From the IMG/VR virus record IMGVR_UViG_3300028549_001513: a stretch of 64,000 nucleotides of DNA; one strand, written 5' to 3'. Below are positions 38,024 to 52,417 of this stretch, piece by piece. A program made the translations under genes and the position numbers. Position 1 is the stretch's first letter. Each line of letters opens with the position of its first letter. Below the pieces are notes generated by a model. The model was not told the DNA's origin. It saw only the letters and a program-made list of their open reading frames with translations, and did no database searches. The stretch comes from a virus.

Positions 38024-41000
38024 TTAATAACATTTTTTAATGTAAGCCTCTAATTCATTTATTCCAACCTCATTTGCAAGATCAATTATAGCCTGTATTG
38101 TAGTGTCAGGCCTACTAGATAGAATGAGCTCTTTGTTTCTATCCCAAATAGGAAGTATGTCGTTCTCTATTAACTTTGTTTTTGGTGCAATATCTAAACT
38201 CATATTTGTATCTATAATTGGTTTTTGCTCTCCATTTTCTCTTGAGATGAATGTTCTAGGAAGTGATGTTATTCCAAACAGATTGTTGACAGCCCTACTA
38301 GCCGCAACATAGACCATTTTTCTATAATTTTCCTCCGTATCAACAGTTTTTACCATCTGCATATCAGATTCATGCACAAATACATTATTAAACTGCCTTC
38401 CTTGTGATGCATGAGATGTTATTGTATATGCATATTTAAGTGGCGCAGGAAATAGTTTCACTATTGTTCCATTCTTTTTTGCAGCTGTACCGTCTTGATT
38501 TGTCATAAAGACATCGTCTAATATCAATATCTTGCTACTCATAATACTTTTTGCTTTCCATAGCTGGGACTCGTCAAATATTAAGCTTCTTGATATATTA
38601 GACAGTTCGTGGTGTATATTTTTTTCTATACCACCATCAACCCATCTTCTTGATGGAACGAATAATTTTGTCTTTTTGTTTGTATCTAAATTGAGAATAG
38701 TAATAAATTTACCATGAATTCTAGAATTAAATAGAGTTTGGAACCCTTCGTCTTCGACGCTATCAACAATTATAGACTCAGCATTTCTATAGTTATACAC
38801 CTTCTTTTTCTTATCAGTAAACTCATACGAATCTGTTTTTGCGGTCAAGAACTCTCCTTTTTCAGGAAAAAATCCTCTTCCTAGCGACTCCCTAATAGAG
38901 TTATTAATAGTATCTACAGTGTCATTTCTATATGCAATCCATTTTACAAAATTTGGATTAGTTCTTCCTTCTGCAGTGTTATAGTAATTATCTATAGAAT
39001 ATTTCAACATTTTGCTAAATTCTGAATGAGGAAGAAACAGTGCTGCTCCATTTTCAGTCACATCGCTATATGCTGTAGTTTTCAATGAGTGATCTTTAGC
39101 GTAGGTTCTAAATGCATTTATTATCCTTGTTATTGGATTTCCAGCAGCCTGTCTTTCCACCTTGCTTAATGAAACAAAATTAGATGTTATAAACGCATCA
39201 GATTGCTTTCCATTATTGTTTACTGGGTCTAACTGCATATCGTCACCAAGGAATAGTACTTTGGTATTTTTTGCGGCAGCCTCTTCTAATATTAATGCAA
39301 CATTAGCATCCTCTATCATAGAAGCTTCATCAACAACAAGTAAGCCATCTTGAACTATTTTTACTCTTCCGAACTGTTCAAACATTAATCCTTCATCAGA
39401 TTCGTCAAGTGGAGCTAATCCAAGCGTTTTATGAATAGTTAAAGCAGCTTTTCCAGATAGTTCAGTTAGTGCTCTAGCTTGATTGTTAGTAGGAGCTGCT
39501 AAGCTAACTTTATTTCCTAATGCAGCAACTATTATCTTCATGATAGAAGTCTTTCCAGACCCTGCAGAACCAATAATAGTGAAGTAGTTATTATCTTCAC
39601 TCTCATACCATTCAGAAACTTCGCTCAAAGCTCTATCTTGCTGATCGTTTAGATTAAAATTAATTCCTATGTTTTTCAAGTTTATTTTAACTCCAGCAAA
39701 TTCTAAATCATAATTAACAGGAATAGAGGTATCTTCTTTTATTGTATCAGCAGATACTATTCTGTTAAACTCTTCGTCAGAAATTGAATTTTCTGAAACA
39801 AAATCATCAAATGTAGGAAGAATCGTCTCTGTAAAATCTACAGCAATAGCTTCCTCTTTGATTTCTGTGCTTTGATTGGCGTTTTTTACAAAATAACCAT
39901 TGTATTTACTAAACCTATTAAGTATTGGCGTAGAATATGCCTCTATTCTCATTTTAAAGGCGTTATCAGGACTTTCTACTGGCAATCCAGTCTCTGCATC
40001 CATTTCTAAATCAAGGGCGTTAGACTCCTTTAAAATAGCTCCTGCGTACATATATATAGCTAGCTCTATCTCCAAGTCAGAATAACTATTACCGTTGAAC
40101 TCCTTGTATAGATTACTTGTTCCAAATATACCTTTACTTATATCTGATTTTGCTATTCTATCAACAGTATTATATATTTCAGACGAATCAGTGTCTAATG
40201 ACTCGTTGTCATTATTATAGAAGAAGCTATCAATAGGTATAAATCCACGCATCTTCTCTCTAATTGAAGCCATAGCTTTCTCTGCCATCTTAAAATTAGG
40301 ATTAGCAGCATTATATGCATTTAAAAGAGCATCAATATCTATTTCTCCATTTATTTTATATGGAAGTATATTATCTGAGATTATAGATCTTTCAGACATA
40401 GCTTCATAAACAAATTTACCAGAGTCTCTGAATCCCTTTCTGTCTATAGCTACATATACTGGATATACCTTATTCTTTCCATTACTCGACATATACGAAG
40501 TAGTGCCAGCTAATTTATATAAAACTTGATATGTTCCGTTTATTTTAGTGTCGCACGCAACCTTAACATATGGATCAAATATCATATTTCCATCTAGCAT
40601 AGTAGTTGTTCTTGCATTTTCAAGTATAAACATGGTTCTGTATACTCCGCCTCCTTTAATTTTAACAGGTGACTTTACAGACGGGAAATCTATATTTGTT
40701 TTTCCACCCATATAGTCAGATTTCTCAGACCATGGCTCAACCATTTTAACTAACGTATCATTATGCCACTTGTTAGATATTATATCATGTAATACCTTGT
40801 CTTTATCGTCTTCAAAAGCATCCTTGGTCTCTTTAAATTTAACTAGCTCTTTCTTTATAAAATCATATAATCCAATTTTATCTCTTTCTCCCTCATCAAG
40901 CTTAACACCACCAATGGTCATGTTATCTCCACCAATAAAGAATTGATATAAAATTAGGTCTTTACCAAAATCACTTATCTCCTTAATGTCGCTTTCTATT

Positions 41001-52417: not shown

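Follow-up and report, generated by a model that had tools for sequence, protein, structure and literature searches.

A 4797-residue open reading frame joining cargo, zincin-like, RNA polymerase and helicase regions in a crAss-like phage

Background

Which kind of protein is encoded by an open reading frame (ORF) that runs through 4797 codons of viral DNA is the question raised by the IMG/VR record IMGVR_UViG_3300028549_001513, of which a stretch of 64,000 nucleotides (the window) was analysed. An original prediction, made from the letters of the window and a list of its ORFs, had proposed a polyvalent protein with protease, RNA polymerase and helicase signatures. The present analysis revealed that one polypeptide joins a region like gp47 of PhicrAss001 and gp67 of phage phi14:2, which ends in a zincin-like domain, to an RNA polymerase (RNAP) of the gp66/gp50 type and to an SF1B helicase, and that the catalytic motifs are intact in all three. 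The ORF very probably encodes a "cargo" protein of fused modules, carried in the virion of a crAss-like phage from within or close to the Suoliviridae; this protein would be injected into the host, and its RNAP would transcribe the early genes.

CrAss-like phages dominate the human gut virome and every infection is started by the polymerase that they inject. According to a review of these phages no member of the Suoliviridae has been cultured, which makes sequence analysis the sole route to the biology of this family.

An intact reading frame

The ORF and its modules (positions in the window; aa, amino acids) are as follows.

38024..52417, minus strand: whole ORF, fusion of cargo region, zincin-like domain, RNAP and helicase (4797 aa, ATG start, TAA stop)
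47477..52417, minus strand: cargo region like PhicrAss001 gp47 and phi14:2 gp67 (aa 1–1647)
46982..47476, minus strand: zincin-like (gluzincin-type) domain (aa 1648–1812), with HEAYH of aa 1705–1709 at 47291–47305
40238..46981, minus strand: two-barrel virion RNAP of the gp66/gp50 type (aa ~1813–4060, boundaries approximate)
39662..40237, minus strand: acidic linker (aa ~4061–4252, net charge -21)
38279..39661, minus strand: SF1B Dda/RecD-like helicase (aa 4253–4713), identified by Pfam, PHROG, PDB and motifs
38027..38278, minus strand: C-terminal tail (aa 4714–4797), ending in LEAYIKKCY with Cys at position -2

The ORF listing and the translation showed no internal stop in the frame. The window has a G+C content of 34.6% and, as about 7% of random codons would be stops at such a composition, 4797 stop-free codons are not a chance event. 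An identical 4797-aa product is carried by two public contigs, Logan SRR21758068 (27.6 kb) and one of the 50–200 kb class, so the open frame is not peculiar to one assembly (the two are possibly of the same sample). The original prediction, which did not name the strand, was thus right to regard the ORF as coding; its motif positions were all recovered to within two residues, and the break in the frame that it had thought resequencing might bring to light was not seen, both contigs giving the same uninterrupted product.

The single long frame could nevertheless be an artefact of a chimeric assembly or of a missed intron or stop, with at least two genes in reality. Such gene division does occur, since in the closest relative found the gene is split into parts of 3260 and 1694 aa by an insertion bearing a LAGLIDADG endonuclease, and TAG is a sense codon in several Suoliviridae, whose giant proteins are fragmented by gene callers as a result. 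Against this stand the 4797 codons without a stop of any kind, the two contigs with an identical product, the unbroken standard-code frames in the reference genomes cr118_1, cr50_1 and cr1_1 and the collinear homology that spans every junction, and an assembly or annotation artefact is considered very unlikely, close to negligible.

The insertion in the closest relative (ENA ERZ28639620 scaffold_305, positions 9122–9772) is of the LAGLIDADG_2 type and is presumably a group I intron as reported for delta-group crAss-like phages. In the giants of cr109_1, cr114_1 and cr6_1 there are 57–70 in-frame TAG codons, consistent with TAG as sense, and the standard code is used in the giant gene of the window phage, cr118_1, cr50_1 and cr1_1. 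The window copy is without the LAGLIDADG insertion and, being divergent, uninterrupted and in the standard code, with neither TAG recoding nor intron, it is convenient for recombinant work. An antisense ORF of 153 aa with a TTG start (45678–46139, plus strand) inside the giant gene is assumed to be a chance frame.

A polymerase of the phi14:2 type

A search of the PDB with phmmer aligned aa 2258–3495 with residues 531–1677 (PDB chain numbering) of phi14:2 gp66 (6VR4 chain A) at E 3.8e-31. The catalytic site lies within this alignment.

42647..42661, minus strand: DFDID catalytic Mg-binding motif (aa 3253–3257), within GSDFDIDK that begins at aa 3251

The sequence TGSDFDIDK is identical in the window protein and gp66 and is aligned residue for residue to 1361-DFDID-1365, which bears out the RNAP-type signature of the original prediction. 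The query residues 2804–3495 correspond to gp66 971–1677 in PDB chain numbering (957–1663 in the native sequence), and the stretch aligned to gp66 1477–1677 takes in the bridge helix and the trigger loop (residues 1529–1559 and 1598–1636). PhicrAss001 gp50, which has DFDVD, aligns to aa 2805–3498, and the alignments with Suoliviridae giants extend to aa ~4020; the ends of the module were projected from the lengths of gp66 and gp50. The RNAP module is the most conserved part of the protein and is 31–37% identical to that of six Suoliviridae giants, which among themselves share 29–38% except for the close pair cr109/cr114 (69.5%). Because the RNAP identity equals the spread among the reference giants, the window protein appears to be another lineage of the same family-level group.

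The gp66 protein of phi14:2 is virion-borne and transcribes early genes despite rifampicin, and RNA synthesis depends on every Asp of 1361-DFDID-1365. In vitro, single-stranded or denatured DNA is transcribed well and native duplex poorly. The enzyme crystallised with a domain blocking its cleft, and its authors suggest proteolytic activation, perhaps by the zincin-like domain (10.1101/2020.03.07.982082 for all of these results).

A conserved metal site

When searching 1.84 billion cluster representatives with a profile of the zincin-like domain 3573 members were obtained, and conservation was taken from the 145 best (representatives of 50%-identity clusters). HExxH is invariant (145/145), with H1705, E1706, H1709 and G1701 conserved in 100%, and downstream of it E1745 (99%), A1748 (100%), E1749 (93%) and F1751 (99%) stand out, E1745 and E1749 being located within LEExxAExFR, 36–40 residues past the second His. 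From its position, E1745 is a candidate third zinc ligand. The homologue of the domain in PhicrAss001 is the C-terminal domain of gp47 (HEAFH 2157; 34% identity over 122 aa).

An AlphaFold2 model from an alignment of 30 cluster representatives reached a predicted local distance difference test score (pLDDT) of 86.1 and a predicted template modelling score of 0.80, and consists of a five-strand sheet with HExxH on helix 55–68 and with E1745 and E1749 on helix 93–111. A first model from 17 sequences was discarded, having a pLDDT of 59 and meaningless Foldseek matches (globins, phycobiliproteins). Among the PDB neighbours found by Foldseek, ranks 1–10 include a Mycobacterium tuberculosis transcriptional regulator (E 0.15, template modelling (TM) score 0.41) and the zincin PPEP-3, a Pro-Pro endopeptidase (E 0.17, TM 0.35), while IrrE/PprI appears at ranks 20 and 23; all neighbours listed have E 0.15–5 and TM about 0.3–0.4, none reaching E <= 0.001. 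Independently, in a search of the PDB with the sequence profile, PPEP-1/Zmp1 ranks first or near first, with HExxH and EExxAE aligned, at E about 0.25–0.3. Designed coiled coils that outranked the peptidase in a deeper search of this kind were rejected as compositional noise. Peptidase family M34 (PPEP and anthrax lethal factor type), to which the profile and Foldseek searches point, was not adopted as a name, no score being significant. In BFVD strong matches to crAss-like proteins were found, with weaker ones to entries named "large polyvalent protein associated domain" and metallopeptidase.

The domain of the window protein matches no Pfam family even at E <= 10, the polyvalent-protein peptidase model included, and eight aligned members gave, at the same threshold, scattered chance hits of single members, one of them to Tox-MPTase4 at E 0.084. 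A candidate identity with a domain of phi14:2 gp65 comes from a weak profile match to gp65 272–339 (E 0.006–0.018 in a tiny database). An alignment-based search of a set of 5.8 billion proteins with the zincin region returned 16 short fragments, and in a peptide-pattern scan of IMG/VR with the zincin-region protein no relative was found. Conservation and model together suggest a gluzincin-like metal site under strong selection in a compatible fold, for which the name zincin-like is used, with no named family. As to the zincin HEAYH protease of the original prediction, the motif at aa 1705 stands, conserved and confidently modelled, whereas the fold matches are weak.

The position of the domain is informative in itself. 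PhicrAss001 gp47 ends 45 aa past it, 62 of the 145 representatives end less than 100 aa past it, and the N-termini of gp66 and gp50 project to aa ~1740 of the window protein. Since the domain always falls at a gene boundary in the crassviruses with split genes, a cut just after aa ~1812 would be the obvious processing site, which gives a concrete cleavage-site hypothesis.

The helicase and its neighbouring slot

A full SF1B helicase had been expected at about aa 4250–4720, and it was found at aa 4253–4713 with every SF1 motif present. Pfam AAA_30 (E 6e-26), AAA_19 and UvrD_C_2 match above their cut-offs, phrog_325 "Dda-like helicase" matches at E 8e-65, and the matches in the PDB are 9kwf, 3e1s (RecD2) and 3upu (Dda). 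The seven motifs are I, GSAGSGKT (Walker A, aa 4283), Ia, APTNNQA, II, VVDEASM, III, GDDMQLDPV, IV, VERQ, V, TSHASQG, and VI, VAASRA. A 5'-3' polarity is assumed from membership of the family.

The helicase is also fused in cr118_1, in cr50_1, in more than 100 metagenomic relatives and in proteins of 6320 aa and 6581 aa (~25% identity), an SF1B helicase thus being coupled repeatedly to a polymerase that prefers single-stranded DNA. As gp66 uses native duplex poorly and single-stranded DNA well, the helicase may supply the single-stranded template.

The 6320-aa and 6581-aa proteins have two zincin-like domains (about aa 700–860 and 2410–2650), an RNAP and a C-terminal SF1B helicase; apart from the zincin-like domain, they share ~24–28% identity with the window protein.

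The helicase may on the other hand be a replication or recombination SF1 helicase of the phage that is cleaved from the polyprotein and works at the fork, unrelated to transcription. In accordance with this, its nearest relatives after the fused copy of cr118_1 are free-standing SF1/Dda-like genes beside uracil-DNA glycosylase in the replication modules of Intestiviridae (Carjivirus communis gp14), cr118_1 has a single SF1 helicase locus, the fused one, and no second SF1 helicase was found in the 64-kb window, outside which, however, about one third of the genome lies. When searching for SF1 helicases at E <= 1e-15, 217 records were matched, and among the 60 matches listed cr118_1 is the only member of the Suoliviridae. 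The genomes of the four Suoliviridae giants without a fused helicase are absent from these 60 and such a helicase is apparently dispensable for replication there, which argues against the fused copy being simply a displaced essential replication gene. Moreover, if phi14:2 and PhicrAss001 are a guide, the giant gene is part of a block of late genes for virion cargo, and new copies of the giant would then follow the onset of replication. A role confined to the fork is regarded as improbable.

The best of the alternatives concerns the C-terminal part as a whole. The linker of aa ~4061–4252 has no family match, but in cr50-like relatives the slot just before the helicase holds NADAR (PF08719), DUF1848 (PF08902) or cpYpsA SLOG (PF12694). 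(Intein and LAGLIDADG signatures are seen in some relatives as well.) The variable slot and the helicase could then be counter-defence cargo in the sense of "polyvalent proteins", effectors injected with the DNA that disarm immunity or protect the genome, for instance against nucleases or DNA ADP-ribosylation, with the RNAP merely the ride. Variability in the family is greatest past the RNAP: the helicase is present in three of the seven giants, cr109_1 has a DprA/SLOG-like segment (from the RefSeq annotation and a reading of the sequence; no Pfam match), cr1_1 and cr114_1 have no recognised domain there, and the BFVD neighbours of the zincin-like domain include proteins with the "large polyvalent protein associated domain". 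The helicase itself is constant across its clade, only the adjoining slot varying, and it recurs with the RNAP in lineages of ~25% identity, which fits a functional link between helicase and polymerase. Counter-defence as the reason for the C-terminal part is possible although somewhat doubtful, and it would be compatible with a transcription role for the helicase.

N-terminal part

Aa 1–1647 have no Pfam or PHROG match and no enzymatic domain was recognised there. The relation to known cargo proteins was seen with hhalign, in which an alignment of Suoliviridae N-termini compared with one of gp47 and gp67 paired aa 411–883 with gp47 337–798 (P = 0.0016, probability 16%), and the motif EG.EE..Q is common to the two; aa 119–725 are covered by BLASTP matches to cr118_1 and cr50_1. 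Three features of composition are present.

51455..51517, minus strand: Gly/Ala-rich hydrophobic segment GEWGAMIGGLVLNQGANMLAK, beginning with GEWGAMIGG (aa 301–321)
50585..50719, minus strand: Gly-rich hydrophobic segments GGAVGVGVMLG (aa 567) and AFLSGAYGAILLGGGMGAV (aa 567–611)
49088..49693, minus strand: acidic low-complexity region (aa ~909–1110)

The Gly/Ala-rich hydrophobic stretches that had been pointed out earlier are thus present at aa 301 and aa 567, with a third Gly-rich segment at aa 593–611. The Gly-rich character of aa 301–321 is retained in homologues, and a GGxxxGxxxGG-type segment comparable to aa 567–611 is conserved in six Suoliviridae giants. The Kyte-Doolittle maximum over 19 residues is 1.45, at aa 593–611, with no other segment above 1.4. 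True transmembrane helices were rejected for the N-terminal region, a single segment being barely over a lenient hydropathy threshold, and the segments of aa 567–611 are candidate membrane-active elements for which insertion into a membrane can only be surmised. The acidic region, previously put at ~180 aa, has a net charge of -42 over aa 901–1110 (210 aa), its most acidic 100-aa window, from aa 926, containing 37 D+E and 6 K+R; an acidic stretch is found at the corresponding relative position in cr118_1 and cr50_1.

A terminal cysteine

The protein ends in a short motif with one Cys.

38027–38041, minus strand: IKKCY (aa 4793–4797)

Crassvirus cargo and RNAP proteins contain ~0.1% Cys overall, and yet a Cys is near-universal in their last 1–10 residues, often as the sole Cys in 2000–6500 residues. 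It is found in 7/7 Suoliviridae-type giants, the window protein included, within the last 10 residues in 50/50 gp47-like cluster representatives and in 72/75 with an internal domain (less than one expected by chance), and within the last 8 residues in 119/120 helicase-bearing C-terminal fragments. PhicrAss001 gp47 (only Cys in 2341 aa) and gp50 have it, as do phi14:2 gp66 and gp67 (only Cys, last residue), and in the 6581-aa protein the sole Cys stands at position -4. The gp65/gp49-like proteins are without a terminal Cys. Among the gp47-like tails the motif ..SQEERDxAIKCxxF is common.

According to the paper on the PhicrAss001 structure, disulfides are numerous in the tail and portal vertex, and in the part of its text covered by a search for the terms "disulfide" and "cysteine" no mention of cargo-tail cysteines was found; nor was a description of the near-universal terminal Cys found. 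Candidate roles for this residue are a disulfide tether released by redox change or a cysteine switch, either of which may apply.

Genome context

The genes around the ORF place it in the cargo or "transcription" gene block of the crassviruses.

56906..63097, minus strand: Crassvirus muzzle protein gene, 2063 aa (Pfam PF25731 crAss_MUZ, E 7.7e-198; phrog_28748, E 1e-140)
52441..56395, minus strand: pair of genes upstream of the giant (597 aa and 719 aa), placed as those of the PhicrAss001 cargo proteins gp46 and gp45
32462..38020, minus strand: downstream gene, 1852 aa, homologue of phi14:2 gp65 and PhicrAss001 gp49 ("RNA polymerase associated protein")

The muzzle protein gene upstream of the giant makes the genomic context that of a crAss-like phage. 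The order of muzzle gene, two small cargo genes, giant and gp65/gp49-like gene is a conserved crassvirus block, and that of the upstream genes matches cr118_1, cr50_1 and PhicrAss001. The 597-aa and 719-aa proteins gave no family match in Pfam and PHROG scans, the latter having a weak match to phi14:2 gp69 (E 3e-4). In the 1852-aa protein, aa 1189–1770 match gp65 790–1399 at E 1e-19 by BLASTP, with E 6e-10 against gp49, and no HExxH was found in it.

When aa 1600–4200 were used in a tblastn search 136 phage records were matched, essentially all crAss-like, the best being cr118_1 (34% identity) and cr50_1 (31%). Judging from the giant protein and synteny, the window phage would belong with, or next to, the Suoliviridae. 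Placement in this family according to the International Committee on Taxonomy of Viruses uses the phylogeny of terminase, major capsid protein and primase together with shared gene content (PMC10136315); terminase and capsid genes lie outside the window or were not recognised within it.

The plus-strand half of the window contains a replication module with a DnaB-like helicase, a Sak4-like ATPase, a primase and an exonuclease. The following were also observed in this half, the tRNA genes in its early/replication part.

3221–3311, plus strand: tRNA gene Glu-TTC (91 nt, unusually long)
6975–7050, plus strand: tRNA gene Pro-TGG
12502–12577, plus strand: tRNA gene Arg-TCT
26280–28919, plus strand: ORF of 879 aa within the replication module, flanked by a 289-aa ORF located after the primase gene and by a "peptidase"-family gene (phrog_4191)

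As the Pro tRNA overlaps the start of a 180-aa ORF (6960–7502), this ORF is doubtful. The 879-aa ORF has no PHROG or Pfam match. As PolB is reported from the Suoliviridae, this ORF may encode a strongly diverged polymerase, or else some other replication protein.

How the protein may work

By comparison with the virion mass spectrometry of PhicrAss001 and the biochemistry of phi14:2 gp66, the giant would be packed in the capsid and driven out through the tail in a partly unfolded state, together with the DNA or before it, after which its RNAP module would transcribe the early genes without the host polymerase. The attached helicase, if 5'-3', might unwind the duplex as it enters, provide the RNAP with single-stranded template and assist in drawing the DNA into the cell. 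The zincin-like domain might cut the polyprotein at the gp47/RNAP boundary or remove the element that blocks the cleft of the RNAP, and the Gly-rich hydrophobic segments of the N-terminus could act at the host envelope during ejection.

A bolder version, which we put forward tentatively and consider rather unlikely, is that helicase and polymerase form a self-sufficient "unwind-and-transcribe" machine, in which the helicase passes single-stranded template to a polymerase unable to use native duplex, in place of the host factors needed by other virion polymerases, and that the C-terminal Cys serves either as a tether sensitive to redox state or as a cysteine switch of the zincin-like domain. 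With such a tether or switch the cargo would stay latent while in the virion and be released in the reducing cytoplasm. In the literature searched neither of these two ideas was found.

Several points weigh against an injected, self-processing transcription protein. Packaging, ejection, processing and the three activities are all extrapolated to the Suoliviridae from homologues. The protease-like domain has no significant match to any curated peptidase family (Pfam, PDB profile or Foldseek) and could bind metal or peptide without cutting, the N-terminal likeness to gp47 is weak (the hhalign values given above), and the hydrophobic segments score below the usual transmembrane threshold. Most crassviruses, phi14:2 and PhicrAss001 included, manage without a fused helicase; that the helicase feeds the RNAP is a conjecture, and the pattern of NADAR, SLOG or DUF1848 beside the helicase in relatives is more suggestive of counter-defence cargo than of a transcription apparatus. 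The injected virion protein with an early-transcribing RNAP is still the explanation that we prefer. It was said beforehand that the proposal would fall if structure and profile searches backed none of the three catalytic assignments; all three hold, the protease with the caveats given.

Relation to known systems

At the nucleotide level the ORF has no match among 50,697 phage records (megablast), and in the set of 5.8 billion proteins its nearest relatives show only ~36% identity. All six RefSeq Suoliviridae genomes that were opened have a giant of 4272–4946 aa with the same layout, the helicase being at the C-terminus in two of them, cr118_1 and cr50_1, and the remaining four measuring 4272–4551 aa. 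The window protein is collinear end to end by BLASTP with cr118_1 gp14 (YP_010110531.1, 4946 aa, "exonuclease V") and cr50_1 gp059 (YP_010110216.1, 4774 aa, "DNA helicase"). Common to the three are the Gly-rich N-terminus, the acidic stretch, HEAxH, the DFDID RNAP, the SF1B helicase and the C-terminal Cys, and their flanking genes are alike. They differ in that the identity is only 29–37%, a distance equal to that between Suoliviridae subfamilies. The RefSeq records of cr118_1 and cr50_1 name the helicase only, with the RNAP and the zincin-like domain unmentioned, so that proteins annotated as "DNA helicase" or "exonuclease V" are fusions of zincin-like domain, RNAP and helicase.

With phi14:2 the window protein shares the homologous two-barrel core of gp66 (PDB 6VR4) and the identical TGSDFDIDK, and the neighbours gp67 and gp65 are homologous to parts that are fused or adjacent here. 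In phi14:2, however, these are three separate proteins (1797, 2180 and 1421 aa) without a helicase, and HExxH is found in gp65 (HEIMH 245), downstream of the RNAP, whereas the window protein has it upstream of the RNAP, and none is present in the gp65 homologue. PhicrAss001 is similar in that gp47 ends in the same zincin-like domain and gp50 is a DFDVD RNAP, and different in that its cargo genes are separate, with gp47 on the opposite strand to gp49 and gp50, and without a helicase domain. PhicrAss001 gp47, gp49 and gp50 were found in virions, where they have been allotted to the cargo zone of the capsid, and the cargo proteins must traverse the tail partly unfolded (PMC10172136). The split homologues being virion cargo by mass spectrometry (PMC10172136), the theme of a polyvalent protein delivered with the DNA, raised by the original prediction, fits.

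The window protein resembles the polyvalent proteins in being a very large phage protein in which enzymatic domains of unrelated kinds are combined, with a content that varies among relatives: it has three catalytic modules, and relatives swap helicase, SLOG, NADAR and DUF1848. Polyvalent proteins, as Iyer and colleagues are said to have described them in 2017, are very large, combine a zincin-like peptidase and a helicase with swappable effectors, and are presumed to enter with the DNA. Unlike in these, the core of the window protein is an RNA polymerase, and its zincin-like domain is without a match to the Pfam model of the polyvalent-protein peptidase.

The virion RNAP of N4 and the Schitoviridae (~3500 aa) is likewise a giant polymerase which travels in the capsid, is ejected and transcribes early genes, probably on a single-stranded template, and the parallel between crAss-like phages and N4 is drawn in the crAss review. 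The N4 enzyme, in contrast, is a T7-like single-subunit polymerase of unrelated fold, and the Dda/RecD-like helicase of N4-like phages is a separate gene. In Thermus phage P23-45, as reported in bioRxiv 10.1101/2022.12.01.518664, a two-barrel RNAP is contained in a giant virion protein of 5002 aa that enters the cell and serves the earliest genes; its fusion partner is the tail tape-measure protein and not cargo, zincin-like domain and helicase, and the likeness is drawn from this description.

In the literature, RNAP genes of up to ~6000 aa are a distinguishing trait of crAss-like phages (review), and multidomain proteins of the crassvirus transcription block have already been described. The gp66 preprint (10.1101/2020.03.07.982082), citing Yutin 2018, calls the crassvirus fusion of the zincin-bearing protein, the RNAP and their neighbour "a single huge polyprotein". 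No text on the helicase fusion, or linking crAss giants to polyvalent proteins, was found, the figures of Yutin 2021 and the 2018 paper lying outside the search. The three-activity fusion and its size, which the original prediction had not recognised as described, are nonetheless not new, the same design occurring in cr118_1 and cr50_1 and its main elements in the literature. The window reveals no new kind of system, the fused architecture of cargo region, zincin-like domain, RNAP and helicase being known from the reference genomes.

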